Positions 6,129 through 23,547 of a stretch of 28,364 bases of DNA are shown in pieces. Position numbers and translations under genes: made by a program. This stretch comes from Oligoflexales bacterium (lineage in GTDB: Bacteria > Bdellovibrionota_B > Oligoflexia > Oligoflexales > RGVZ01): assembly GCA_044236265.1 (NCBI GenBank), contig JBIIGV010000030.1, forward strand, positions 1 through 28,364, written 5' to 3'. Within the stretch, counting starts at the first letter, position 1; every line of letters begins with the position of its first letter. Under the pieces are notes generated by a model, which was given only the letters and a program-made list of their open reading frames with translations, ran no database searches and had not been told where the DNA came from.

Positions 6129-7226
6129 ATGAAGTATTTTGAAAGCGCGCGTGCCGTTGCGGCATGGTCCATTGGATGTGTGATGTTTTTCAGTGCCTTT
6201 GCAGGGGACAGCCGGGCCTGCACGACCTTCAAGTTTTCGACCGAGGGACGTTCTTTTGTTGCAAAAAACTATGATTGGGACAAAGAGCAGGGGATGCTTT
6301 ACGTCAATAAACGTGGCGTTTCCAAACAATCTCTAAAAGTTTTTGCCAATGACCAGGTCCTTGAGTGGACGTCAAAATTTGGAAGTCTAACTTTCAATCA
6401 ATATGGACGCGAGTTGCCGAATGCGGGAATGAACGAGGCAGGTCTTGTAGTTGAAGTGATGGAGCTCGGAACATCAAGATTTGAAACAGCAGGTGCCAAG
6501 TCATCAGTTAACGAAAGTCAGTGGGTTCAGTTCATGTTGGATAATGCCGCATCCGTTGAGGATGTGAAAGCTTTGTCCAAAAATATTAGGATTTCGAAGA
6601 TCCTGGTGCCATTACATTATATGGTTTGTGACACCGACGGGAGCTGCGCTGCTTTTGAAAGTTTAAACGGCCGGCTTCTAATAACAGATCAGGTCCAACC
6701 TGACACCGCAGTTCTGACTAATCACACATATGCCGAGTCTATGACATACCTCGGACAGTTTGCAGGTTTTGGTGGCTCAAGAAATCCTCCGGCTGGAGAT
6801 GGGTCTCTTGAACGATTTGCTCGTGCCGCTACCTTTGTAAAAAATTCGCAGTTGGCCCGAGTCTCATCTTTTGATGTTGAAGACGGTTTTGAAGGTTTGA
6901 GTGCGGTTGAAACCTCAATAACCCAATGGAGTATCGTTTATGATTTGGGGCGCCGTCAGATCGCTTTCAAATCTCGTTCGTCAAGGGCGTTAAAAAGCGT
7001 GCAATTGAACAACTTCGACCTTGGTTGTTCCAGCCCTGTGATGGGCTTCCCGATCATTTCGCGGGACTCAGGCGATGTTTCAGCAATGTTTAGGCCCTAC
7101 AGTGATCAGCTTAATCGGCAGTTGGTTGAGAGCTCGCTAGCGGGCGATGTGCCTCGTCAGCTCATCGAGGCCGCAGCGAATCTTCCTGGTTCCACTCAAT
7201 GTGTATCGTCGATGGATCCTAATTAA
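6129..7226 (+). CDS. Secreted Ntn-hydrolase, choloylglycine hydrolase/penicillin V acylase family (C59)
   Basis: Signal peptide ending SRA, followed by nucleophile CTTF. Motifs KNYDW, GMNEAGL, LHYMVCD, LTNHTY, SLERFAR, TQWSIVYDL. Confidence 0.88.
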   Translation: MKYFESARAVAAWSIGCVMFFSAFAGDSRACTTFKFSTEGRSFVAKNYDWDKEQGMLYVNKRGVSKQSLKVFANDQVLEWTSKFGSLTFNQYGRELPNAGMNEAGLVVEVMELGTSRFETAGAKSSVNESQWVQFMLDNAASVEDVKALSKNIRISKILVPLHYMVCDTDGSCAAFESLNGRLLITDQVQPDTAVLTNHTYAESMTYLGQFAGFGGSRNPPAGDGSLERFARAATFVKNSQLARVSSFDVEDGFEGLSAVETSITQWSIVYDLGRRQIAFKSRSSRALKSVQLNNFDLGCSSPVMGFPIISRDSGDVSAMFRPYSDQLNRQLVESSLAGDVPRQLIEAAANLPGSTQCVSSMDPN

Positions 7227-8529
7227 ATAAGTCGATGATTGCTTTTACACTTCGGTTTATTGATTGCTCGGCTTGGTCGCTAGCGGGCTGGATGACCCCC
7301 GAAATTCCGTCAGAGACCCGATCACCGATAATTGATTTTTGAATAGCTTCGAGAGGATTGAAAGGTCGCACATTGCGTTTTGTGTCGATCGTTTTCCATC
7401 CAAATGTGTAGGTTTTTACCATGACTGGAAGCTCTGAAGAGCTGGAATCAACAGCAAGTGTTTTTAAGTCAATTCCTAACGATGAGATCATCATTTTAAA
7501 TTGATTCAGACTCAGCGCAGATGCGAAAGCCTTTTTGTACCAGCTGCCTGTCATGACAGCGGTAATTGTGGGAATCGTCTCGAGTCTCGGCATACAGGCG
7601 TCACCTGTACATACGGAGCTTGTCATGGTTGATGGGTCAAGCGGCCCAAAACTGACCTGAACAATCGCAGGTTGGGTGTTCCCTCCTGACGGGCTATAAG
7701 TGCGCTGTGTGGATATCTGAAGGATGTCTGCATTTTCTTTCTTTGGCTGATAAATTACAGATTCAATCGATATTTCGTCCATGGTGTCTTTTGGAAGTGA
7801 AAAGCCAACTGGAATCATGCTGACCATGAAACTTGTTTTAACGGTCTTCGTTCGGTCTATGCTGATTCCAGCCTTGAAATATAGTGGCAGCCATGCGCCT
7901 TGATTCAAGTCTCTAAGTTGGCTGTAGGCGGATTTTGACTCTGCCGCCAAAGAATCCATTCCTCCTTGAATCTCCGCTTCACGAGCCGTCTCTAGACCCA
8001 TTAGCTGCGAGCCTAGTTGAATGGCAAACGGATTGATGGCATTTGAGTCTTTATTGGGTGAAGGAGTCAGGATCTTAAATAGCATTCCGACGATACTGCT
8101 GTTGATTGGAAGGACTTTCGATCCAAAGGTTCGAGTTGTCCAATAAAAGTGGATGGCGTTGTCTGCGTTGTCTGTCGCTGGTGCCTTCAAGTTGTGGTGA
8201 ATACTGCGAATGCGGGTTGCCATCATCAAATCCATGTTCAACAGCATTTTTCGAAGTGAACTAATTGGTCCTGGGGTTGCGGACCCTGAGTATCCAAATG
8301 ATTTGTCGGTTCCGTAGAATTGCTGGCCTAAGGTTTTCAACGAGCTTTCTCTGATTGCAGATGAGAAATTTTCAACGAGGATTCGCCGAGTTTCTGGGTC
8401 CACGTATCCTGATTTCGATGTAATCAATACGGGGTGCAAATTTTTGGTTGACTGTGCCAGCGCAACGCTGGGAATCCACAATCCGAGGAGCGTGATGGCG
8501 ATTATAAAATTTAGCCTCTCTCTATTCAT
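7219..8529 (-). CDS. Secreted hypothetical protein (436 aa)
   Basis: Signal peptide (…LLGLWIPSVALA-Q). Start overlaps the stop of the upstream hydrolase gene (ATGA at 8526-8529). The 3' end overlaps the convergent Ntn-hydrolase gene by 8 nt. Confidence 0.75.
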   Translation of the reverse strand: MNRERLNFIIAITLLGLWIPSVALAQSTKNLHPVLITSKSGYVDPETRRILVENFSSAIRESSLKTLGQQFYGTDKSFGYSGSATPGPISSLRKMLLNMDLMMATRIRSIHHNLKAPATDNADNAIHFYWTTRTFGSKVLPINSSIVGMLFKILTPSPNKDSNAINPFAIQLGSQLMGLETAREAEIQGGMDSLAAESKSAYSQLRDLNQGAWLPLYFKAGISIDRTKTVKTSFMVSMIPVGFSLPKDTMDEISIESVIYQPKKENADILQISTQRTYSPSGGNTQPAIVQVSFGPLDPSTMTSSVCTGDACMPRLETIPTITAVMTGSWYKKAFASALSLNQFKMMISSLGIDLKTLAVDSSSSELPVMVKTYTFGWKTIDTKRNVRPFNPLEAIQKSIIGDRVSDGISGVIQPASDQAEQSINRSVKAIIDLFN

Positions 8530-9998
8530 TGAATCCCCATGCGAGTTAAAGCGGAATCTAAAATAGCATCCACTATGGCGGTGCGAGGGAGGTTTGGGCC
8601 TGGCGCAGACTCAAGCGCATCTAATCTTCGAGAGAATCCCAAGGCCATGTGATCTAGGGCTAAAACGCCGAGAAGGCTTGCCTTCGCTCCTTTGGGTACA
8701 ACATCAACGGGTAGAACAGAGTGTTCCAAGGCGACACAAGAGTCACTGATCGGGTGGCGTCGGAAATTTATGATTGAGGTGAGCTCACCCATATGACTTA
8801 AATCCTGGGTTCCCGATTGGAATACAATATTTCCATCGCTATCGGTGCTGAGTAACGGGAATGCCTCCAGTTTTGCAACATCGAGAGCCGCTGCAACGTG
8901 AAAAATCGGAAACTCTCTGGTGCCTGTCATCGGATCAGGTTCGCTTCGGGAGAGATCCCAGTTTTTGACTTTTTCGAATAGAAAATTTTTTCTTTGACTT
9001 GGTAAAAGTGAGCGAATCCCCGCTCTCACTGTTTCAAACTCTGGTCCCGTGTACATAGGTAATATTTTTTGAGCTACGGAGGCACTGTTTCCTAAAGAGG
9101 CGCCAGCACCGAATGAGAGCATCGTTCCCAGGAGGCCTCGGTTAAACTCGGTCATCTCGCTTCGATTTTTTGCTAAAGACTCCACTAGAGGGTGAATCAT
9201 GACCATCGGCAGCCCTCCACCAAATGGCGATCCCACGGTAATGAGCGCAAGAGTGCGTTCTCGAATATCGGGAAAGCTGGCCAGGGCCTGCAGCATGCTG
9301 GTGCCCCCTTTAGAGTAGCCCCAGAATAGGTAGCGATGCTCCTTGGTTTTGTTGGCCTCAAGTTCCAAAAACTTCGTGTGGATTTTCGGAGCGCACTCAT
9401 CGTCAGTTGCAAAGGAGTTAGGCTGACATTCGTGCCGGAGTATGCGTAAGTCACCTCTTTTTATTTCGTCGGCAAAAGCTTTGCTCCAAAGATCTCTGCT
9501 GTCATATAGAGCTCCAGATTCAGTTAAATGACTACCGAAACCGCCAGCCATGATAAAGGTCAGACCAAGGTTCTTTTGTCTGGCAGCAGATATCAGTTTC
9601 CGCATCCCGGTTAATTCAGATTCGACAGATTTTTTTGACTGAGGGGCGCACTGAGATATGCGACTCCCCGGATTAAACAGTTGCTCCAGTAAAAATTCGT
9701 ATGGATAGGGAGATTGATAGGTCCCAGTAACTGTTTTTTTCAATGATCCTGACGCTGGTAAAACAACAAGCTCAGCTGCTGCTTTACAGTCAATTCTTGA
9801 GGACAGTGTTTTCAGTAGCAGATTGTCGGTTTCGTACTGAAAATCTCGCAGAGAAATAACGTCCTGCTCGTCGCCGGCAAGGCTTGAGCCTGCGGTACGC
9901 CGCTTGGCAGCAGTTTTGCAATTTGAGAGAACAACCGCAAAAAAAAGTACTGCCAAAATGATTCTGGAGCGAAAGCGTAGTAAAGATAATGCGGTCAT
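8526..9998 (-). CDS. Lipoprotein alpha/beta hydrolase (lipase/esterase-like)
   Basis: Lipobox-like LFFAVVLSN-C, oxyanion segment FIMAGGFGS, nucleophile elbow WGYSKGG, LITVGSPFGG, candidate triad Asp (SDSCVAL) and His (LDHMALG). Confidence 0.8.
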   Translation of the reverse strand: MTALSLLRFRSRIILAVLFFAVVLSNCKTAAKRRTAGSSLAGDEQDVISLRDFQYETDNLLLKTLSSRIDCKAAAELVVLPASGSLKKTVTGTYQSPYPYEFLLEQLFNPGSRISQCAPQSKKSVESELTGMRKLISAARQKNLGLTFIMAGGFGSHLTESGALYDSRDLWSKAFADEIKRGDLRILRHECQPNSFATDDECAPKIHTKFLELEANKTKEHRYLFWGYSKGGTSMLQALASFPDIRERTLALITVGSPFGGGLPMVMIHPLVESLAKNRSEMTEFNRGLLGTMLSFGAGASLGNSASVAQKILPMYTGPEFETVRAGIRSLLPSQRKNFLFEKVKNWDLSRSEPDPMTGTREFPIFHVAAALDVAKLEAFPLLSTDSDGNIVFQSGTQDLSHMGELTSIINFRRHPISDSCVALEHSVLPVDVVPKGAKASLLGVLALDHMALGFSRRLDALESAPGPNLPRTAIVDAILDSALTRMGIQ

Positions 9999-10288: not shown

Positions 10289-10690
10289 ATGTCAGAAGGG
10301 CGGCGCGAAAATAGAAAAATGGTTAGGTTGATCCTTGATCATCCGCTCAAGGTATCAATTGGCTCCCTAGGCGCTGACGTCCGCTATGATCTTAAAACTC
10401 GTAACGTGTCATATACCGGTTTTTTTCTTGATTTTGAAAAGCCAGGACGATTTCCTTTCACTCCAGCCTCGATCATGGAGATCTGGATTGATCTAGAGCC
10501 AAATAACCGTATTTTCTTTAACGGAAAAATGGTGCGAAAAGTTATGCCAGGCGATCCTGGTTCCGAGATTACAGGCCCAGGTATTGCTGTTCGAATTATT
10601 CAGATGGATTCTAAAACCGAGCATCAGCTCAAAGAATTCATTGACCGGAAAATTTCTGAAAAAAACTCCAATTCGATCAAGTCAGCATAA
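10289..10690 (+). CDS. Stand-alone PilZ-domain protein (c-di-GMP receptor)
   Basis: RxxxR (RRENR) and (D/N)xSxxG (NVSYTG) motifs, plus GKMVR, GIAVRI and a C-terminal helix LKEFI. Confidence 0.82.
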   Translation: MSEGRRENRKMVRLILDHPLKVSIGSLGADVRYDLKTRNVSYTGFFLDFEKPGRFPFTPASIMEIWIDLEPNNRIFFNGKMVRKVMPGDPGSEITGPGIAVRIIQMDSKTEHQLKEFIDRKISEKNSNSIKSA

Positions 10691-10743: not shown

Positions 10744-11313
10744 TTAATAACGGGGCTCGTGTCCCGGCTTCCATTTGATATTGCACCCAAGGCTAGGTTT
10801 TTGCTCAGATGGTAGTCTTGCATTTGCCAGCAAAGCGTCGAGCGCTAACCTAAGGTCCTTCCCCGTGACTGGAATTTGATTGGATGGACGACTGTCATCC
10901 AGCTGACCTCGATAGACCAGGCGATGACTTCTATCAAAAAGAAAGATGTCCGGGGTGCATGCAGCTTTAAAGGCTTTTGCTACATCTTGCGTTTCGTCAA
11001 AAAGATAGGGGAATACATAGCCTGCTTTTGCTTTTTCAATTTTCATCTTTTCAGGTGAGTCATCTGGATGGCTTATGACATCGTTGCTATTTATTGCGAC
11101 TACTCCAATACCTTTTGATGTGTAATCGCGACCAAGTGCAGCAAGCTGATCGCGGACATGGATCACAAAAGGACAGTGATTACAAATGAACAATACAAGT
11201 AACGGCTTACCGCTGAAATCTTGACTGCTGATCTTGTTGCCGTCGGTATCCGGAAGACAAAAGCTTGGTGCCGAGGTGCCTAATTCGAGCATATATGATG
11301 GAGTGCGTGCCAT
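10744..11313 (-). CDS. Thioredoxin-fold AhpC/TSA (PRX-like1) family protein
   Basis: Start at ATG 11313 (SD GGAGA). APSFCLPDTDG, FICNHCPFV, YLFDETQDVAKAFKAACTPD, YRGQLDD, SLGCNIKW. Confidence 0.9.
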   Translation of the reverse strand: MARTPSYMLELGTSAPSFCLPDTDGNKISSQDFSGKPLLVLFICNHCPFVIHVRDQLAALGRDYTSKGIGVVAINSNDVISHPDDSPEKMKIEKAKAGYVFPYLFDETQDVAKAFKAACTPDIFLFDRSHRLVYRGQLDDSRPSNQIPVTGKDLRLALDALLANARLPSEQKPSLGCNIKWKPGHEPRY

Positions 11314-11369
11314 TGTTGGTTCTCCCGCGCGAGGTTCGACTTCGGTTGTGTCACAAAGACACGGGTAGG

Positions 11370-12155
11370 TCAATCCGGGATCACGATTTCCATGCCATCA
11401 TAAGCGAGCTCTACACCGGCAGGTAGCTTGGGCGTTTCAACGTCGTAATCAATCTCGTGATTCATGTGGGTTATAATTCCGCGTTCAACGTCGAGCTTAC
11501 GAAACAAATCAATCGTTTCGCCAATTGTTGAGTGGGTTTTGTGATCTCGCCATCTGAGGCCGCTGGCGACCATCGTGTGAACTTTGCCGCGCCATGCTCT
11601 AATGATGTTGTCACCGAGAGTCTTAAAGTCGGTTGCATAAGCAAAGCGTCCAAAACGAAATACATTCGTAAAGGTGTTGCCATGGGGTGCTAGAAACGTC
11701 TCGACCTCAAGACCAGCAATTTGTGTCGCACCTTGATTCGCGGGTAGTGGGCATAGTTTCAAGTTTGGTCGTCCACCCAGATACCCAGTGTCTTCAAAAG
11801 CGTAGTGGAATCTTAGTTTTAATTCCTGGATGAGATCGGGGTGTAGCCAACACTCTATTTGTTTTTGACTGTTGAAATAAAGTCCACGTAGATCATCAAA
11901 GCCATGGCAGTGATCAGCATGAAGGTGACTGTATATAACATGTTGAAGTGATGAGATGCCTGCTCTCAAGGCCTGGAGTCGAAACTCCGGTCCTGTGTCG
12001 ATCACAATTGGTACTTGATTAGGACCCCATACTGCGATTGACGCGCGCCATCTTTGATTTCGCGGATTCGTGCTTTTGCAAACTGCACAAGAACAACCCA
12101 ACACAGGAACGCCTGTTGAGGTGCCGCAACCCATAATCTTGACTAAATACGTCAT
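11370..12155 (-). CDS. Metallo-beta-lactamase-fold hydrolase, PhnP-like phosphodiesterase
   Basis: GCGTSTGVPVLGCSCAVC (Zn motif), IDTGPEFRLQ, HLHADHCHGFDDLR (HxHxDH), YATD, THMNH, LAYDGM. Confidence 0.9.
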   Translation of the reverse strand: MTYLVKIMGCGTSTGVPVLGCSCAVCKSTNPRNQRWRASIAVWGPNQVPIVIDTGPEFRLQALRAGISSLQHVIYSHLHADHCHGFDDLRGLYFNSQKQIECWLHPDLIQELKLRFHYAFEDTGYLGGRPNLKLCPLPANQGATQIAGLEVETFLAPHGNTFTNVFRFGRFAYATDFKTLGDNIIRAWRGKVHTMVASGLRWRDHKTHSTIGETIDLFRKLDVERGIITHMNHEIDYDVETPKLPAGVELAYDGMEIVIPD

Positions 12156-12164
12156 AGTTCAATT

Positions 12165-13679
12165 TTAAGATCGTATGAGACTTCTCAGAAGGCGGGCACG
12201 ATCACCCTCTTTTGAGGTAAAATCTCGCATTTTGTCCAGTCTTGTTACGTGATCGATTTTTCTAAGTGGGTACTCGTGCCAAAAATTAGCCTCTTCCTCT
12301 AAGGATACCGAGAAGGCGACGTGGTCGATCCCCGAATCCTGATCTGGCAACTTTTCTAGAAGACCCTCACGGAACATGACCTGGAGACATTGGGACACGT
12401 CTTCATCTGGATAAGGAGTAGCCATCTTGATGTGCGCACTCAAGGTTTCCAGCGATACAGCTGACTTGCTTCCAAACACATCCTTGACACCCTGGAAACA
12501 AGCACGCATCAATAATGCATCTGGATAGTTTTTATCAATGGAGAAACGATGGTGAAAGTAGTCTTTTTCCCCGCAGATTACGACAGTGCGAATAAATCCA
12601 GAATCTTCAACTCCAAAAATTTCACGAGCCAAAGTTTCGGTGCTATCAGTCATGCCGTTGAAAATCACAAATTCAACACATCGAGTGTTTTCAATTTCAC
12701 TCAGAAATGGCCCAATTGATATAACAATGCGGACGTCTCCAGTTTCAAACTGTTGCCGGGCTTTGTTGGCTGAAAACTCATCTGTTCCAGGTCGGATAAT
12801 GGCGAATTCTTCGCCTTTTTTTTCCAATAAGTCGGCAGTATCGTAAAGCTGTTTGATAGAATTGCAGTAAATGACGCCTTGGCCCGCTGAGCGGTTAAGC
12901 TCTAAATCGAGAATATTCAGCCGATCCAAGTCGTTTGTTGCCGTGATACACTCCACTCCAAATCCTGGGACGGTCTCAGGAGAGAGTCGTCCTTGGAATG
13001 GTTCGTTTAGACATAATAGTTTAGTGAGATCGTGTGTGACTCTAGCACTAGGATTCCATACGATCGCAATTTTTTGGGGGCGCTTTATTTGGCTTTGTAA
13101 AGACGCCAAAAAACTTCCAACAAATCTGTAGTTGGGTAAAAACTTATGTGACCAAGGGCTCATAAGCTGTGCCTGGTCAATGATCACTATTCCAATATCA
13201 CGACGGCGAAGCCGTTCACGGAATCGTTGACTCGACAGTCGACCAGGGGTAACCAGAAGAATCTGAACGTCTCCGTGATCCATCCTGTCCCAAATGATCT
13301 TTTTTTCAGCTTTGGTCGGTGCCAGGTCGAAAGACTCTGAGTTTATATTCAGAGCGCAGAAACGCGCTTTCATGCGTCGAATGCTTTGAATAGAGTGCGT
13401 CACCACAAGGACCAGGCCACAGCCGGCGGCAGCTGGTAAAGCTGCACAGGTGATCGAGGCCAGACGATCAGGCCCGCTGACAATAATGTCTCGGCCCTTA
13501 CCAAGATGTTCAATAACTTCAAGGTTTTCCGAGGATACGTAGGTAAGTCCAGGTATGCTGGTGGACGCATCCACAAGTCGACCGAGGATATCCTGCCCTC
13601 GAGAGGAGCTATCCAAACTTTCGGCACTGTAGCTGGCATCGCCAGGAGAACAGCTTGCTGCGTTAAGGTCCATGCTCAT
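12165..13679 (-). CDS. RecQ-like protein with degenerate helicase motifs (probable pseudo-helicase)
   Basis: Collinear with RecQ (LPAA…GLVLVV, ILLVTPGRL, IIDQAQLMSPWSHKFLPNY vs IDEAHCISQWGHDFRPEY, GVIYCNS), but Walker A, DEAH and motifs III and VI are substituted. Uninterrupted 504-aa ORF. Confidence 0.8.
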   Translation of the reverse strand: MSMDLNAASCSPGDASYSAESLDSSSRGQDILGRLVDASTSIPGLTYVSSENLEVIEHLGKGRDIIVSGPDRLASITCAALPAAAGCGLVLVVTHSIQSIRRMKARFCALNINSESFDLAPTKAEKKIIWDRMDHGDVQILLVTPGRLSSQRFRERLRRRDIGIVIIDQAQLMSPWSHKFLPNYRFVGSFLASLQSQIKRPQKIAIVWNPSARVTHDLTKLLCLNEPFQGRLSPETVPGFGVECITATNDLDRLNILDLELNRSAGQGVIYCNSIKQLYDTADLLEKKGEEFAIIRPGTDEFSANKARQQFETGDVRIVISIGPFLSEIENTRCVEFVIFNGMTDSTETLAREIFGVEDSGFIRTVVICGEKDYFHHRFSIDKNYPDALLMRACFQGVKDVFGSKSAVSLETLSAHIKMATPYPDEDVSQCLQVMFREGLLEKLPDQDSGIDHVAFSVSLEEEANFWHEYPLRKIDHVTRLDKMRDFTSKEGDRARLLRSLIRS

Positions 13680-13792
13680 ACAATGATTGTACTGTGATTT
13701 CGAAGAAAACTGGTAATTTTTTTTTATTTTTTTAGTAAATCACACAACACATCCTATTATTCTTGGGCTTTGTTTTATGGGATTGCTCTTTA

Positions 13793-15015: not shown

Positions 15016-15855
15016 TTACTTAATGTTGATCAGGAGTCCAGCGCCAATCGAGGTGAACGATTTACCGGCTAAAATTCCAGGTGCAAATCCACCTTCGATC
15101 TGCCAACCGTCAAATCTGTAGCCTGCCATTAGCGCACCCCGAACGTGCGGTGCAAAGCCTGTGTTGACCTCGTAACCCCACTCTTCAGATTTCGCTGCTG
15201 ATACTTTGTTGTCAATCTTTGCAAGGGTGTATGACAGTCCAAGGCCAGCTTCAGTTCGAATTAAAAAATCATTTTGAGAGAATAAAGTGTACGCAACACC
15301 TCCAAGTGCTGCCAATGAGGTTGCGCCAAATGCTGCTTGCTCGGAATCTGCATAGACGTTTGTTGCAGTGCCTGAGAATGAATAGATACTGCCTCTTGCA
15401 AATCCATCTACACGACCAAGAAATTTGCGTCGAATCATTTCTCCGGTGGCTTCATAGCCTTTGGCGGTAGCTCCGGCACCAAGTGTGGCGATGCCTATAT
15501 GCCCCCCCACCGCTATCGGTGACGGTTGTTTATAAATTCGATATTGCTCCTGACTTATTGCTGATGGTCCGTCGAGCATTGCGTAGGTTTCAGCTTGGGC
15601 GCTTACAGGGCCCATGACTTGCTCAAGTTGAACTGCTCGAGCGTTCCCATGCATTTTAGTTACTTGACCGGTAGCAATGAGTTCACCACGATCAGTAAAA
15701 AATCCAACTTTGTCGCCGGTTACAGCGCCTCGATCATAGATCACGCAGGTGTTGTTTCGGGAGCCACACTTAAAATCGCGCTCCGCGATTGCGGTGCTCG
15801 GCGCAAGATACAGAACCGTAAAAGCTACGAGGTTGATGTAGTTTTTTGATTTCAT
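15016..15855 (-). CDS. Secreted protein with a small N-terminal beta domain and a C-terminal outer-membrane beta-barrel-like region
   Basis: Start ATG 15855 (SD GGGAG/AAGGA), signal peptide …APSTAIA. Gly/aromatic amphipathic strands (GGVAYTL, EAGLGLSY, MAGYRF). Confidence 0.65.
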   Translation of the reverse strand: MKSKNYINLVAFTVLYLAPSTAIAERDFKCGSRNNTCVIYDRGAVTGDKVGFFTDRGELIATGQVTKMHGNARAVQLEQVMGPVSAQAETYAMLDGPSAISQEQYRIYKQPSPIAVGGHIGIATLGAGATAKGYEATGEMIRRKFLGRVDGFARGSIYSFSGTATNVYADSEQAAFGATSLAALGGVAYTLFSQNDFLIRTEAGLGLSYTLAKIDNKVSAAKSEEWGYEVNTGFAPHVRGALMAGYRFDGWQIEGGFAPGILAGKSFTSIGAGLLINIK

Positions 15856-15897
15856 GGTCCTTAGACTCCCTTTCAATAAAATACCTGCCGCTAACTG

Positions 15898-15913
15898 AGC
15901 AATACTCATGCCA
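15898..15913 (-). promoter_or_regulatory. sigma54 (RpoN) -24/-12 promoter
   Basis: Minus strand TGGCATGAGTATTGCT: exact GG-N10-GC spacing, near-consensus TGGCAYR-N4-TTGCW, 42 nt upstream of ATG 15855. Confidence 0.75.
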
Positions 15914-16034: not shown

Positions 16035-17372
16035 GTGGACTTGAAAAGCTTGCGCAGTGAGCTGGATCGACGCCGCGTCGCGGTGTGGAGTGCAGGTGAA
16101 AAAATCTGGAAGCCCATACCCGTAGCCCTGACACCAACCATTGTCATGAGATCCGAGTGGCAGGACGTGGTCAGCGATGCGCGTCGAATTTTTAATACTT
16201 TTCCAAAAGTCTTAAGCTGGCTCCAAAGACCGGAGCAGGCCCATTTGAAAGAGGGTGTTTTCGCAGGCCTGTCTTCGATCGAGCGGGCGGTGATTGATAT
16301 TGATCCTCTGGCTCAATGGGGACACGTCACCGCTAGATTTGACTTATTTTGGGATGGCGATCAGATCAAAATTATTGAGGTCAATTGTACGATTCCAGCT
16401 ATGCAGTCGTACAGTGATGGAGTTCTCAATGCTTGGCTGAAAGCAAGCGGCCAGGATGTTTTGACTCGTGGAAATATGGGGCAGCTTTTGGAAAGCTTAC
16501 TGTCAGCCTACCGAAGAAATGGAGGGCGGACCGAGTCGCCTAAGGTGGCCATCTTGCACCGGGCAGGAGACAGCCAGTTGGGTGAACTCATGTCATTGCA
16601 GGAGGAGTGGGGAAAGTACGGTGTTCAGGCGGTGTTGGCAACACCTTCGATGGTTGCGCGATCTGCTAATCAATGGTTTGTCGGTGAAATGCCTGTCGAT
16701 CTCATTTATCGACACATCTTTGCGTGGCGTTTGGAGGACAGTCCGTTTGCAAATTGTCTCATCAACAATCGTCAAACGCATATTTACAATCCTGTTTCGG
16801 CCCATTATGAGTCCAAAGCATTTTTGGCGTTGGTGAGTCACTTAGTTTCCGATACGCATCGCGCGCGAGACGTTGGATTTAGCAGTGATGAGATGGCTGC
16901 GGTAAATCTGCGTGTGCCTTGGAGTCGTATTCTTGACCAGGGCCCCTTGTCGGTGCCATTTGAAGAGGTAAAAGAACGGCTTCCAGATTTGGTATTCAAG
17001 CGAAGCGTAGGTTACGGTGGGCATCAAGTTATCATGGGGCAAGATTGGGAGACCCAAGAGACCCAAGCTAGACTTCAACAATTGACAGGTCATTTAGGTC
17101 ATGTTGATTTTAATCATTTTGCTTCATGGATTTTGAAGCAAGACACAAGTCTTTGGATTGCACAAAATCGCATGTCAGGGGCTCAGCGAAGGACGCAAGT
17201 GCTCTGCGGTGATCAAGTAGAAGAATGGGATGGTTGGTTTGACGCGTCCGTTTTTATTGACAGCGGAAAAAGCCCTGTTTGTTCTGGTGGCGTAAGCCGC
17301 ATTTCCAAGTCTCCCATCGTCAATATTGGCACTGGAGGCGGACTTGCACCGTTTCAAATTATTGACAACTAA
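16035..17372 (+). CDS. Circularly permuted ATP-grasp / glutathionylspermidine-synthase-like amide ligase
   Basis: ARFDLF…IKIIEVN (R-x-D, E-x-N metal ligands), DLIYRH, ESKAFLA, VPWSR, LVFKRSVGYGGHQV, C-terminal VNIGTGGG. GTG start. Confidence 0.8.
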   Translation: MDLKSLRSELDRRRVAVWSAGEKIWKPIPVALTPTIVMRSEWQDVVSDARRIFNTFPKVLSWLQRPEQAHLKEGVFAGLSSIERAVIDIDPLAQWGHVTARFDLFWDGDQIKIIEVNCTIPAMQSYSDGVLNAWLKASGQDVLTRGNMGQLLESLLSAYRRNGGRTESPKVAILHRAGDSQLGELMSLQEEWGKYGVQAVLATPSMVARSANQWFVGEMPVDLIYRHIFAWRLEDSPFANCLINNRQTHIYNPVSAHYESKAFLALVSHLVSDTHRARDVGFSSDEMAAVNLRVPWSRILDQGPLSVPFEEVKERLPDLVFKRSVGYGGHQVIMGQDWETQETQARLQQLTGHLGHVDFNHFASWILKQDTSLWIAQNRMSGAQRRTQVLCGDQVEEWDGWFDASVFIDSGKSPVCSGGVSRISKSPIVNIGTGGGLAPFQIIDN

Positions 17373-17442: not shown

Positions 17443-17493
17443 TTAGAAGTTCATGTCAAATGCAACTTCGCCAGTAACGCCTACTTGATAGCT
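17443..17493 (-). pseudogene. nrdB: Out-of-frame C-terminal tail of nrdB (SYQVGVTGEVAFDMNF*)
   Basis: Minus strand reads …CCT TTT ATG T|AGC TAT CAA GTA GGC GTT ACT GGC GAA GTT GCA TTT GAC ATG AAC TTC TAA. This matches the YQV…FDxxF tail of actinobacterial/myxobacterial-type NrdB, shifted +1. Confidence 0.85.
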
Positions 17494-18424
17494 ACATAAA
17501 AGGGAATGGATTTTTGCTTCCAAATATTTGTCCAAGACCCAGGGTTCTTAGTCTTTGGTCAGCAATGAACTCCAAATATTGCCTCATGTTTTCGACAGTC
17601 ATTCCGGCTACATTTTTACCCAAGACGTCCTGAGCGAACTGCGTCTCGCAATCTACAGCTTCAACGAGCATTTCTTTAACGCGCTCAGCTAAAGTTGCAT
17701 CGAATAAGTCGGGCTCTTCTTCTCGAATGTTTCTGATAACCTCGAACGCAAACGCCATGTGCCCGCTTTCATCTCGGAAGACCCAGTTTGTTCCAGCTGC
17801 GAGACCGTGCAAGAGGCCACGATTCCTGAGGAAGTAGACATAAGCGAAGGCTGCGAAGAAGAATAGGCCTTCAATGCACGCAGCAAAGCAGATTAGATTT
17901 AATAAAAACCGCTGACGGTCTTCGCGCGTATGCAATTCATTAAGGTCGTTAATAGAGTCGATCCAGCGGTGACAGAAATCACCTTTCTTTTTGATCGATG
18001 GGATATTTTCGATAGCAGCAAATGCTTTAGCACGCTCCTCGTGATCCGGAACATATGTGTCCAGAAGCGTGAGGTAAAATTGTACGTGTAGTGCCTCCTC
18101 ATAAAGTTGTCGCGACAGATACATGCGCGCTTCAGGGGCGTTAATATGCTTGTAGAGATTTAGGACAAGATTATTTGAGACGATGGAATCGCCGGTAGCA
18201 AAAAATGCGACCAAGCGATTGATCAAGTGACGATCACCCTCGCTCATCTTGAGGCTTAGGTCAGCAAGATCCGTTGAAAAGTCAATTTCATCAACCGTCC
18301 AAGTGTTTTTAATTGCATTCTTGTACATTTCAAAAAACACCGGATACTTCATCGGGCGAAGAGTTAAATTGAATCCTGGGTTCAACAGGTTTGTACTATT
18401 TGGGGTAGTTTGTGTGTTCATCAT
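17492..18424 (-). CDS. nrdB: Class I ribonucleotide reductase beta subunit, C-terminally truncated by a premature TAG
   Basis: FFATGDSIV, EEALHVQFY, IEGLFF and RDESGH give the full di-metal ligand set and radical Tyr. Start overlaps the nrdA stop (ATGATG). ORF ends abruptly at KNPFPFM*. Confidence 0.93.
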   Translation of the reverse strand: MMNTQTTPNSTNLLNPGFNLTLRPMKYPVFFEMYKNAIKNTWTVDEIDFSTDLADLSLKMSEGDRHLINRLVAFFATGDSIVSNNLVLNLYKHINAPEARMYLSRQLYEEALHVQFYLTLLDTYVPDHEERAKAFAAIENIPSIKKKGDFCHRWIDSINDLNELHTREDRQRFLLNLICFAACIEGLFFFAAFAYVYFLRNRGLLHGLAAGTNWVFRDESGHMAFAFEVIRNIREEEPDLFDATLAERVKEMLVEAVDCETQFAQDVLGKNVAGMTVENMRQYLEFIADQRLRTLGLGQIFGSKNPFPFM

Positions 18425-20730
18425 TGACATGCCTCGCATGCTTCAGGGTTTTCGAGAGAACAAGCCAAAGCTTGCTCTGGAGTGAAAGATTTTTTTGGAC
18501 TTTCGCTTGGATTGCCGACAGTCGTATCAACGTTTACTTTGGCAATGCGGGTAGCCGGACGAGAGCGGAGATAGTACGTGGTTTTTAGGCCCTTTTTCCA
18601 GGCATACATGTACATCGATGAAAGAACCCCGATGTTCGGACTCTCTACAAAAAGATTCAGTGATTGACTTTGGTCGAGAAACGCCCCGCGATCGGCGGCC
18701 ATGTCGATCAGGCTGCGCATGGGGATTTCCCAAGCCGTGCGATAAATCGCCTTGAGATCAGCTGGAACTTCCTCGATCGTTTGGACTGAACCTTCGGCCA
18801 TTTTAATTTTGCTTCGGACGTCATCGTTCCAGAGTCCGCGCGCCTTCAAGTCCGAGACCAGGTAGCGATTTACCTGCAGGAACTCACCGGAAAGAGTTTC
18901 TCTTTTAAAGAGATTGCTGACTTGTGGTTCGATGCATTCGTAACTACCGACGATGGAGCCAATAGTGGCTGTTGGTGCGATTGCCAATAGTAGGCTATTG
19001 CGCAGTCCGCTTTTCATAATTCTCGAACGTAGCGTATTCCATTGTTCCGCTTTGTCCGAGGATGGCGACACGCCCCAACTGTCAAACTGCAGTTCGCCAC
19101 GAGCTGCTCTCGTTTCGGCGAAGGCGTCATGCGCTCCGAGTTGCTCAGCTAGCTCGACACTGGCCGTCAAAGCGGCAAGGTAAATTTCCTCCTGGACCTT
19201 TTTGTTAAATGCACGCGCGGCTTCACAGTCAAAAGGCCATCCCATAAGAAAATAAACGTCCTGTAGTCCCATGACTCCGAGGCCTACCGGGCGCCATCGC
19301 ATGTTTGAAGATTTGGCTGTCGGAATCGGATAAAAATTAAGGTCAATGACTCGATCAAGGTGCCGGATTGCAATTTTGACATTGCGGGTCAGCTTGCTCC
19401 AGTTGAAGGTTTTGTCTTTTTCTACATATGCAGAAAGATTGATGGATCCAAGATTGCAGACCGCGGTTTCGTCTTTATTGGTGACCTCAATGATTTCGGT
19501 ACATAGATTCGACAAATGTACTGTTCGGCCCCTCAGCGCGGTTTGGTTACACTTCTGATTGCTAGCGTCTTTGAATGTCATCCAGCCATTTCCGGTCTGA
19601 GCAAGTGTTCTCATCATGCGTGCATAGAGGTCCCGTGCTTTGACCTGCCGTGTGAATTTTCCGGATTTTTCTAAGGCGAGATAGGCCTCCTCGAATTCTT
19701 TTCCGTAAAGATCTACAAGCTCAGGAGCGATGGCTGGATCAAACAGACTCCACGTTTGATCGTCGGCAACGCGCTTCATGAAGAGGTCGGGTATCCAGTT
19801 GGCAAGATTTAAATTGTGAGCTCTACGCGCCTCGTCACCAGTATTTTCGCGTAGCTCCAGGAATTCCTCGATGTCAGCATGCCAGGTTTCAAGATAAACA
19901 CAGCAGGCTCCTTTGCGTTTACCTCCCTGGTTCACAGCGTTGACGCTTGAATCCAGCGTCTTTAGCCAAGGAATCACGCCATTGCTAAAGCCATTTGTAC
20001 TTTTGATCAGCGAGCCGCGACTTCTGACGCGACTGTATGACAGGCCGATACCTCCGGAAAACTTACTGAGTAATGCAGCGTCCTTGTATTTGTCGTAAAT
20101 ACTGAGGAGACTGTCTTCCGGAGAGTCCAATAGAAAACAAGATGATAGTTGTTCATGCGTTGTTCCTGCATTGAACAAAGTGGGTGAACTCGACATGAAC
20201 TCAAAGCTTGAATAGATGCCGTAGAGTTCGATGGCTTCCTCAAGAGTTTGTGACAGAGCACAGGCAACGCGCATGAAAAAATATTGCGGGGTTTCAATCA
20301 CCTCACGTGTGTGTGGGTGTTTTAAAAGATATCGGTCGTAGATGGTTCGTATGCCAAAATATTCGAAGCGGTAGTCCTGCTCCGGAATAATGGCAGCATT
20401 TAGAACATCGCAATACTGTTCCGCAAAGTTCATGAGGCGTTCATTCACAAGTCCGTGTGATCTGCCCGCCATCAAACTGTCTTTAAATGACATAATGCCC
20501 TGAAGGCTTACTTCTTCGGAAATCCAAGCAGAAAGCTTTTGAGCGGCGATCTTGCTGTGGGAGGGGTCTTCGAAAATCAAACCTGCATGATGCTGAATGT
20601 CCACCATTACGGTGTCTTTTCGCTGCTTACGTTCGGATAGAGATGAAGATGGTTGGGCCTGATCCTCTTTTGGAGGATTTGGGCGGCTTGTCGCTCTTGT
20701 CTGAACGGAAGAAACGTCGAAATTTTGCAT
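18421..20730 (-). CDS. nrdA: Class I ribonucleotide reductase alpha subunit (769 aa, no complete ATP-cone)
   Basis: SSPTLFNAG, LSSCFL, SNLCTEI, AVCNLGS, AIAPTAT, KTTYYLR, C-terminal CSLENPEACEACQ. Start reassigned to ATG 20730 (SD GGGGAGGG). Confidence 0.96.
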   Translation of the reverse strand: MQNFDVSSVQTRATSRPNPPKEDQAQPSSSLSERKQRKDTVMVDIQHHAGLIFEDPSHSKIAAQKLSAWISEEVSLQGIMSFKDSLMAGRSHGLVNERLMNFAEQYCDVLNAAIIPEQDYRFEYFGIRTIYDRYLLKHPHTREVIETPQYFFMRVACALSQTLEEAIELYGIYSSFEFMSSSPTLFNAGTTHEQLSSCFLLDSPEDSLLSIYDKYKDAALLSKFSGGIGLSYSRVRSRGSLIKSTNGFSNGVIPWLKTLDSSVNAVNQGGKRKGACCVYLETWHADIEEFLELRENTGDEARRAHNLNLANWIPDLFMKRVADDQTWSLFDPAIAPELVDLYGKEFEEAYLALEKSGKFTRQVKARDLYARMMRTLAQTGNGWMTFKDASNQKCNQTALRGRTVHLSNLCTEIIEVTNKDETAVCNLGSINLSAYVEKDKTFNWSKLTRNVKIAIRHLDRVIDLNFYPIPTAKSSNMRWRPVGLGVMGLQDVYFLMGWPFDCEAARAFNKKVQEEIYLAALTASVELAEQLGAHDAFAETRAARGELQFDSWGVSPSSDKAEQWNTLRSRIMKSGLRNSLLLAIAPTATIGSIVGSYECIEPQVSNLFKRETLSGEFLQVNRYLVSDLKARGLWNDDVRSKIKMAEGSVQTIEEVPADLKAIYRTAWEIPMRSLIDMAADRGAFLDQSQSLNLFVESPNIGVLSSMYMYAWKKGLKTTYYLRSRPATRIAKVNVDTTVGNPSESPKKSFTPEQALACSLENPEACEACQ

Positions 20731-20825
20731 AAAGGAACCCTCCCCTGGGTAAGCCCAAAGATTGAACAGAATGACTTGCGATGATGGGCTGTTACACCCA
20801 AATTTGAGATCGTGCTCTAAGGAAA

Positions 20826-20855
20826 AGGATAAGGCAGATAGTGTTTTAATGTCAA
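20826..20855 (-). promoter_or_regulatory. sigma70-type promoter of nrdAB
   Basis: Minus strand TTGACA-N18-TATCCT, about 95 nt upstream of the nrdA ATG. Confidence 0.6.
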
Positions 20856-20861
20856 CGTCAG

Positions 20862-20877
20862 ACACTACCGGTAGTGT
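20862..20877. promoter_or_regulatory. NrdR box (plus a degenerate second box at about 20829-20844)
   Basis: Perfect 16-bp palindrome ACACTACCGGTAGTGT versus consensus acaCwAtATaTwGtgt, just upstream of the -35. A half-matching ACACTATCTGCCTTAT (minus strand) lies 33 bp away in the promoter spacer. Confidence 0.7.
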
Positions 20878-21031
20878 TGTGGAATTGGGCAGCAGTGTAT
20901 GAAGTGCCCGGTATTTATGGCTTTGCACAACTCAAAAAAATTTTTGTCCACAGGTTACCCCAAGGTCCCTTCACCATGGAGGATGTGTGGGATTTTTGAT
21001 CCTATTGAAAGAGTTTCCCGTTTTTTTGGCT

Positions 21032-23462: not shown

Positions 23463-23547
23463 GCGAAGATGGTGGAATTGGTAGACACGCTGGTCTCAGA
23501 AGCCAGTGCTGAGAGGCTTGGGGGTTCAAGTCCCCCTCTTCGCACCA
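23463..23547 (+). tRNA. tRNA-Leu (anticodon CAG)
   Basis: Acceptor GCGAAGA/TCTTCGC plus ACCA, D-arm GTGGAATTGGTAGACAC, anticodon arm CTGGT-CTCAGAA-GCCAG, long variable arm, T-arm GGGGG-TTCAAGT-CCCCC. Confidence 0.96.

Follow-up and report, generated by a model that had tools for sequence, protein, structure and literature searches.

Described pseudohelicases and the locus under study

Helicase folds without a working motor are already known in a few families, the described cases being PriA of Deinococcus, Utp25 and MUT-15. The PriA pseudohelicase of D. radiodurans is described as having neither ATPase nor unwinding activity while keeping its binding to DNA and to DnaB (PMC4504706). Utp25p is a documented eukaryotic pseudohelicase (PMC9539457), and MUT-15 is presented as a pseudohelicase that licenses an associated nuclease (bioRxiv 10.64898/2026.09.04.749402). 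Among shorter relatives of RecQ, RecS of B. subtilis is reported to form a stable complex with YpbB, the product of a translationally coupled neighbouring gene (PMC3000357). In open-access full texts we found no paper on a RecQ-family pseudohelicase, and none on RecQ in Oligoflexia. Here we analyse a gene at positions 12165..13679 (-) of a 28,364-nucleotide stretch of DNA from an Oligoflexales bacterium (assembly GCA_044236265.1, contig JBIIGV010000030.1, positions 1 to 28,364; hereafter the window, meaning this whole stretch). The gene had originally been predicted, from the letters of the window, to encode an intact but catalytically dead paralogue of RecQ. Our analysis of its open reading frame (ORF), homology, fold and purifying selection supports the view that the whole ORF encodes a motor-dead protein of RecQ fold. 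As a helicase fold with degenerate motor motifs that is kept under selection, this protein is a pseudohelicase.

The protein resembles each of the described cases in part. Like Deinococcus PriA, as that protein is described, it is a retained, lineage-specific, motif-degenerate orthologue of a bacterial superfamily 2 (SF2) DNA-repair helicase. However, the Deinococcus protein belongs to the PriA family, and its loss of activity was shown biochemically, whereas in our case the loss is predicted from sequence (PMC4504706). MUT-15 and Utp25p, going by their descriptions, likewise have a helicase fold without motor motifs and a scaffold role, and the role of MUT-15 is of the kind that we propose below for the pairing with a metallo-beta-lactamase (MBL)-fold hydrolase; their lineages, families and partners are unrelated to ours, and the likeness is one of analogy only. 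RecS, compared by its description, is likewise a shorter paralogue found alongside canonical RecQ and has a tightly coupled neighbouring gene, but it is described as carrying the helicase motifs, and YpbB, its partner, is encoded upstream and does not belong to the MBL hydrolases (PMC3000357).

Replacement of the motor motifs

The ORF starts with ATG and encodes 504 amino acids (aa) with zero internal stops, so the original description of it as full and uninterrupted stands. A search of 5.8 billion proteins returned 36 full-length relatives of 39–99% identity and 497–555 aa, nearly all of them 497–506 aa. Below these 36 family members there is a gap, and then ordinary RecQs follow at E 2e-8.

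In alignments made with MAFFT auto and with L-INS-i, the window protein carries other residues in place of each of motifs 0, I, Ia, II, III, V and VI. Motif 0 (the Q-motif), FRPxQ in canonical enzymes, reads SSENLE, and the former Walker A element (motif I), PTGxGKS, reads SGPDRLAS (residues 68–75, 13455–13478 (-)). Motif Ia is changed from SPLIAL to THSIQS, and the former motif II from DEAH to DQAQ (residues 168–171, 13167–13178 (-)). The former motif III has IVWNP (residues 206–210, 13050–13064 (-)) in place of TATAT. Where canonical enzymes have motif V, VATxAFGMGIDK, the window protein reads ISIGPFLSEIENTR at 12681..12722 (-), the reading in the alignment being ISIGPFLSEIEN. Finally, in the former motif VI (residues 352–361, 12597–12626 (-)), QEIGRAGRDG has become REIFGVEDSG, with both arginines gone. 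Only motif IV is partly retained, as GVIYCNS. The readings originally given for Walker A, DEAH, motif III and motif VI, and the coordinates given for the first two, proved exact when checked. Misalignment was considered as a source of the motif loss and rejected, because MAFFT auto, L-INS-i and HMMER against solved RecQ all give the same replacements.

The original prediction had proposed to collect orthologues and see whether they share the loss, and it is indeed common to all 36 members across their whole range of 39–99% identity. At the motif columns, GK[ST] occurs in 0/36 and DExH in 0/36 sequences, while chance matches off these columns number 1/36 for GK[ST] and 3/36 for DE.H. The lysine and the serine or threonine of the Walker A site are absent in 36/36 members, and none of the 36 keeps GRAGR in motif VI. 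The motif II position is occupied by DQAQ in 20 members, by DQAH in 11 and by other sequences in 5, with the aspartate kept in 31/36. Without a P-loop lysine, a Q-motif, a catalytic glutamate or either motif VI arginine, the window protein is very unlikely to bind or hydrolyse ATP, and the motif losses predict that it does not carry out ATP-dependent 3′–5′ unwinding.

Similarity to RecQ and predicted structure

At the level of sequence, the homology of the window protein to RecQ is significant but very weak. It scores 91 bits against TIGR01389 (recQ; cut-off 640.2) and 70.9 bits against TIGR00614 (recQ_fam; cut-off 219.8), and is thus below both family cut-offs. The Pfam domains DEAD (25.0, gathering threshold 26) and Helicase_C (20.4, gathering threshold 23.5) are both missed slightly. 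Pfam RecQ_Zn_bind has no match in the window protein, whereas the complete canonical RecQ of another genome of the same genus (L038) does match. In phmmer comparisons with solved RecQ cores, residues 54–342 match 4tmu of Cronobacter sakazakii (E 1.1e-20) and 1oyw of E. coli (E 4.3e-19). By these measures the protein fails the features that define a RecQ, namely the family cut-off, the motor motifs and the zinc (Zn) cluster. It clearly has a RecQ fold, however, and its ancestry lies among RecQ-family enzymes.

An AlphaFold model built on the 36 family sequences has a mean predicted local distance difference test score (pLDDT) of 87.2 and a predicted template modelling score (pTM) of 0.84. Among the matches listed, Foldseek returned RecQ-family structures only, and VIA-align gave Z scores of 32.4 for BLM, 31.8 for RECQL5, 30.7 for WRN and 29.8 for E. 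coli RecQ (1oyw). The structural check that had been proposed thus points to RecQ, with Z 28–32 to the cores of RecQ, BLM, WRN and RECQL5. Against 1oyw, 381 residues align at a root-mean-square deviation (rmsd) of 2.9 Å, and residues 28–504 of the model correspond to RecQ residues 6–391 only. Compared with canonical RecQ more widely (E. coli 1oyw/1oyy; C. sakazakii 4tmu/6crm), the two lobes and the helical part of the Zn subdomain are shared (Z 28.5–29.8, rmsd 2.6–3.0 Å, 379–381 residues), the sequence is collinear (E 1e-20), and the aromatic loop W..F.P.Y is common to both. In contrast, the window protein is without the ATPase motifs, the Zn-binding Cys4 cluster, the RQC winged helix and HRDC, and has an extra winged-helix-like segment of ~70 aa.

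In the model, two RecA-like lobes and the RecQ-specific helical subdomain are present. The N-terminal tail, residues 1–29 (13593..13679 (-)), is sequence-variable and is the sole part predicted to be disordered (pLDDT <50). RecA-like lobe 1, residues ~50–230 (12990..13532 (-)), holds the degenerate motifs 0, I, Ia, II and III. Lobe 2, residues ~231–370 (12570..12989 (-)), holds the partly kept motif IV and the degenerate motifs V and VI. What remains conserved in the dead protein is the aromatic-rich loop, motif Ib, part of motif IV, a winged-helix-like insert and a C-terminal helical element.

In canonical RecQ, the aromatic-rich loop couples the binding of single-stranded DNA (ssDNA) to the motor. 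Its retention after motif II, as originally noted, was confirmed: it lies at residues 173–185 (13125..13163 (-)) and reads MSPWSHKFLPNYR. All 36 family members show the pattern M-S-P-W-S-x-x-F-x-P-x-[YF]-R, in which M, S, P, W, S, F, P and R are invariant, and W176, F180, P182 and Y184 are common to active relatives (see below). Mean conservation is 0.88 in this loop versus 0.66 in the remainder of the core. The position equivalent to the canonical loop arginine is variable in the family.

The winged-helix-like segment occupies residues 388–456 (12312..12518 (-)) and shows the order H-E-H-H-E-E in the model (DSSP pattern). In the model it appears to be inserted within the helical portion of the Zn subdomain. 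While its presence was predicted correctly, it is thus not an RQC winged helix following the Zn domain, because the alignment of residues 28–504 ends at RecQ residue 391. The C-terminal helices, residues 460–502 (12174..12302 (-)), contain a family-invariant FWHEYPLRK and match the helical part of the Zn subdomain of RecQ. It is inside this part that the chain terminates, given the same mapping to RecQ 6–391, at the point where the RecQ Cys cluster would start. The predicted stop before the Cys cluster is therefore right, and a C..C..C cluster is found in 0/36 family members, but which residue lies opposite the first Zn cysteine is alignment-dependent (D492 with L-INS-i, R495 with MAFFT auto).

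Purifying selection

The dead gene is under purifying selection. All 10 of the complete orthologous loci that we fetched have an open frame, and the family alignment contains 64 invariant columns. In the four pairs for which synonymous divergence (dS) was finite, the ratio of nonsynonymous to synonymous rates (dN/dS, or omega; NG86 method) is 0.097, 0.029, 0.108 and 0.044, and the control, the neighbouring MBL gene, gives 0.019–0.047. Per-domain values are 0.03–0.09 for RecA1, 0.03–0.16 for RecA2 and 0.016–0.073 for the C-terminal region, so that all three are constrained. The expectation of a dN/dS below 1 is thus borne out, with 0.029–0.108 in four pairs and constraint in every domain. Together, the shared loss, the low dN/dS and the RecQ fold agree with the original view of a selected, repurposed protein rather than a decaying pseudogene. 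As a separate observation, the first 49 codons (13533–13679) have a dS of 0.19–0.50, against >1 in the rest of the gene, in 3/4 pairs.

Descent from an active short RecQ

The window protein had been called a paralogue of RecQ. This is correct, because the window's own genome also holds a canonical, Zn-containing RecQ-family gene. That gene (L001:1415-2677 (-), contig C231) is truncated by the contig end, and the completeness of the genome is 88.7%. On the same contig it is preceded by a 420-aa ORF, to which no function was assigned and whose end overlaps the RecQ start by 8 nucleotides (nt). With the dead-family profile, this canonical RecQ scores only 53 bits.

We searched 94 genomes of the order with the family profile. 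Strong full-length matches (780–880 bits) occur only in the window's genus, where the dead form is present in 11/12 other genomes as well as in the window's own; the twelfth genome is 85% complete. Weaker full-length matches (130–270 bits), in frames of ~480–585 aa, were found in many other genera. Every one of the 18 weaker matches that we fetched keeps motifs 0, I, Ia, II, III, V and VI, and every one ends at the same position without the Cys cluster. We refer to these as active short RecQs (e.g. L020:2928-4475 and L030:2428-3924). They score 316–358 bits against TIGR00614 and so pass its cut-off of 219.8, and the RecQ_Zn_bind domain was not found in them although it is found in the complete canonical RecQ of L038. 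The window protein, which has neither the motifs nor a passing score, shares with them the length, the order of elements, the end point and the MBL gene downstream, at 21–28% identity. It matches the short-RecQ end point ('..YF..' before the Cys cluster), but its terminal YF reads IR. A model of one active short RecQ shows the same order of secondary structure, including the winged-helix-like insert in the same layout and the terminal helices. The window gene is thus the positional orthologue of an active, Zn-less short RecQ of other genera. Furthermore, since the active short RecQs end at the same point without the Cys cluster, the missing cluster and the short length are ancestral to the short-RecQ family and are separate from catalytic death.

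Among 1.84 billion cluster representatives, an exhaustive profile search gave the same division. Of the 27 top representatives that were checked, 25 are active, with intact Walker A and DEAH, and 2 (P0040 and P0041, which add to the 36 family members) are dead; no partly degraded intermediates were seen among these 27. A profile of the active family, run against 130 genomes of the phylum, detects a full-length active short RecQ (at least 545 bits) in 43, all from this order, and none of the 43 belongs to the window's genus. There, the same profile finds the canonical RecQ (396–426 bits) and the dead form (226–238 bits), the canonical RecQ co-occurring in 10/11 other dead-form genomes of the genus and in the window's own. 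The sister order has canonical RecQs of ~600 aa only. Many genomes of the order also carry very long frames (~1200–1480 aa) with a RecQ-like core, which may be fusion proteins (e.g. G023:C330, G022:C78, G061:C65 and G072:C1:1243706-1244809).

The same descent is supported by a maximum-likelihood tree (41 rows, with canonical RecQs as the root) and its 200 bootstrap trees. The dead clade is monophyletic (100/100 support), the short and dead proteins together are split from the canonical ones (100/99 support), and the dead clade is nested within the short-RecQ clade in 200/200 bootstrap trees (a short clade excluding the dead one occurs in 0/200). Its stem, at 1.8 substitutions per site, is long compared with the median terminal branch (0.36). 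The placement of such a long branch is open to attraction artefacts, but synteny independently gives the same conclusion.

With the neighbouring MBL gene as a clock, the ratio of RecQ-like to MBL divergence is 1.43 in the dead clade (MBL-identity band 0.6–0.7) and likewise 1.43 among active helicases in the same band. In pairs of one dead and one active protein, the RecQ-like identity is 0.25, whereas active–active pairs at equal MBL divergence (~0.5) have 0.40. All motor motifs were lost on a single long branch in the window's genus, after which constraint returned to the level of active helicases. The picture is one burst of change, restricted to the helicase gene, followed by restored constraint. 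The original prediction would have counted against itself orthologues with intact GKS and DEAH combined with relaxed selection on this copy; such orthologues do exist, in other genera, but relaxed selection was not seen, the ratio being 1.43 in both groups. Of the ancestral positions with at least 80% conservation, the dead clade keeps 34, shows a different but again conserved residue at 14, and has lost or loosened 59. Conservation restricted to the dead clade is seen at 47 other positions (25 in the C-terminal region), a count that is inflated by the shallow depth of the clade.

The MBL-fold hydrolase gene and the wider neighbourhood

A gene for a PhnP-like MBL-fold metallo-hydrolase (11370..12155 (-)) begins 9 nt past the stop codon of the pseudohelicase gene, and no terminator-like site was found in this 9-nt gap. 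It lies directly downstream in 10/10 dead-clade loci that reach that far (the eleventh, L019, ends inside the gene), and an orthologous MBL gene (46–53% identity) lies directly downstream of the active short RecQ in 16/18 loci. The spacing is 6–48 nt in the dead clade and, where the start codon is unambiguous, ranges from an 8-nt overlap to 51 nt in active loci. The N-terminal Cys cluster, HxHxDH and the later metal ligands are intact in the window and invariant in 26/26 sequences from dead and active loci, and the MBL partner has remained catalytically intact. Its nearest solved relatives are 6b9v, 3py5 and 3md7, each named 'Beta-lactamase-like protein', and then PhnP and PqqB.

The third gene of a likely operon encodes an AhpC/TSA-type redoxin (10744..11373 (-)), overlaps the MBL stop by 4 nt and is syntenic in 9/11 dead-clade loci. 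On the opposite strand, upstream of the pseudohelicase gene, an aspartokinase gene is present in 8/11 dead-clade and 9/18 active loci. The RecQ-like and MBL genes are thus adjacent in 26/28 informative loci, against 17/29 for aspartokinase. Directly upstream of the ATG of the pseudohelicase gene, an element conserved across 8 aligned loci (13680..13730 (-)) resembles a promoter and consists of an A-run, TTACCA, ~19 nt, TACAAT or TACACT, 5–6 nt and the ATG; the window itself has TACAAT and a 6-nt spacing. A simple promoter scan called nothing upstream of this gene, but the alignment nonetheless shows the conserved element, which would suggest a transcript start at or next to the ATG and hence a leaderless mRNA.

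The window was also compared with defence systems, and this reading was set aside as unlikely. The DpdF and PsyrT models of PADLOC, which stand for RecQ-like anti-phage proteins, match the window protein at 77–94 bits, but they match the active short RecQ far better, at 334–458 bits, so these matches probably reflect general RecQ likeness. The neighbours are housekeeping genes, and the MBL gene matches nothing in this comparison.

Several other features of the window are recorded here for completeness. Beside the redoxin gene, 10289-10690 (+) encodes a PilZ-domain protein of 133 aa (Pfam PilZ, 33.9 bits), found in this position in 9/11 dead-clade loci. Four ORFs have no Pfam match at E 1e-5: those of 436 and 490 aa in 7219-9998 (-), one of 297 aa at 15016-15909 (-) and one of 445 aa at 16035-17372 (+). 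The latter two have no NCBIfam match either and are syntenic in several relatives. The genes for the small and large subunits of ribonucleotide reductase, at 17492-20928 (-), overlap by 19 nt, and the sole match in an Rfam scan of the window is a tRNA at 23463-23544 (+).

Possible functions of the pseudohelicase

Because the MBL hydrolase is the one constant companion across the order, we favour a role for the dead protein as a non-motor nucleic-acid-binding or targeting subunit of the hydrolase encoded 9 nt downstream, a proposal that we regard as an even call. The pseudohelicase, predicted to be unable to bind or hydrolyse ATP or to unwind DNA, would hold single-stranded nucleic acid through its retained aromatic-rich loop, motif Ib and winged-helix-like insert. 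It would work together with the MBL enzyme, a predicted phosphodiesterase or nuclease, which would supply the only chemistry of the pair. It is possible, though somewhat short of an even chance, that the genus swapped an active RecQ-type helicase for an equally constrained dead orthologue in this way, and that the ATP-independent job, to hold nucleic acid and to license or aim the MBL enzyme, is the selected function.

Several observations weigh against this proposal. Adjacency within one order could be inherited synteny, given that the opposite-strand aspartokinase gene is also syntenic. We looked for a co-acceleration of the MBL gene on the genus stem and found none; this stem is ordinary (0.34, against 0.25–0.56 for internal branches), and there is thus no signal of co-evolution. 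The closest solved relatives of the MBL protein carry only the name 'Beta-lactamase-like protein', which does not indicate a substrate. Changes also affect several of the DNA-contacting motifs of canonical RecQ (Ia, V and, in motif IV, the TR), and the loop-arginine position is variable, so DNA binding could be weakened or altered. As to the data themselves, dS is saturated in 51/55 pairs, and the omega values rest on the other 4. In addition, all sequences come from metagenome-assembled genomes, and the organism labels of the 11 loci are inconsistent (Oligoflexales, Pseudobacteriovorax, 'Bdellovibrio sp.', 'Polynucleobacter', 'Deltaproteobacteria', 'Proteobacteria' and 'bacterium').

The alternative that survives best is a binder of DNA structures that acts independently of the MBL enzyme. 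Such a protein might mark or protect forks, 3′ tails or G-quadruplexes, or might recruit replication or repair factors, and its adjacency to the MBL gene would be inherited. We consider this somewhat unlikely. It would account for the retained RecQ fold and aromatic-rich loop, it has a precedent in PriA of D. radiodurans, and it agrees with the ordinary MBL stem and with the fact that the aspartokinase, PilZ and redoxin neighbours are syntenic too. However, it would not explain why the RecQ-like and MBL genes form a pair so much more constant (26/28) than that with aspartokinase (17/29), nor why they are often <20 nt apart or overlap by 8 nt.

The changes in DNA-contact motifs (Ia, IV, V) raise another alternative, in which the protein does not bind nucleic acid at all but serves purely as a protein scaffold or regulator, either as an allosteric activator or inhibitor of the MBL enzyme or as a modulator or decoy of the canonical RecQ. 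Canonical RecQ co-occurs in 10/11 other dead-form genomes and in the window's own, and MUT-15, a pseudohelicase described as licensing a nuclease, offers a precedent. Also in favour are the 47 columns (25 of them C-terminal) whose conservation is confined to the dead clade and not seen in active relatives, although shallow depth inflates conservation there. What makes this alternative unlikely is that the aromatic-rich loop, whose role in canonical RecQ lies in ssDNA–motor coupling, is the most conserved stretch.

It is highly improbable that the protein is a cryptic NTPase or helicase working through non-canonical residues, or a nucleotide-binding switch without hydrolysis. Every member lacks the P-loop lysine and serine or threonine, the Q-motif, the catalytic glutamate and both arginines of motif VI, and there is no alternative GK[ST] at the site; in favour of such an activity, the motif II aspartate is kept in 31/36 members (DQAQ or DQAH), and conservation of the former ATP-site residues in the dead clade (0.66) equals that of the remaining core (0.66). 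Finally, a decaying pseudogene or annotation artefact without function, to which the scores under the Pfam and NCBIfam cut-offs and the divergence faster than that of the neighbours (across the deepest split within the genus, 48% identity versus 66% for MBL) might have pointed, is refuted by the 64 invariant columns, the frame open in 10/10 complete loci and in 36 proteins of 497–555 aa, and the dN/dS of 0.03–0.11, as well as being at odds with the confident predicted fold.

Implications

Members of this family are annotated in some sources as 'ATP-dependent DNA helicase RecQ', and the activity implied by that label is probably wrong. The pair of a short, Zn-less RecQ and a PhnP-like MBL (e.g. 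L020:2928-5259; L020-L037) is widespread in Oligoflexales-like bacteria and apparently undescribed, as we found no description of a RecQ/MBL gene pair in the titles and abstracts of the open-access papers listed. If our reading is true, the window protein would be the first natural RecQ-family pseudohelicase, and the family would amount to a natural separation-of-function experiment for an undescribed helicase–MBL repair or processing module. Within one order, the same intact MBL stands next to a live helicase at some of the orthologous loci and next to a dead one at others, and comparing the two forms should reveal what a RecQ-like protein does without its motor.

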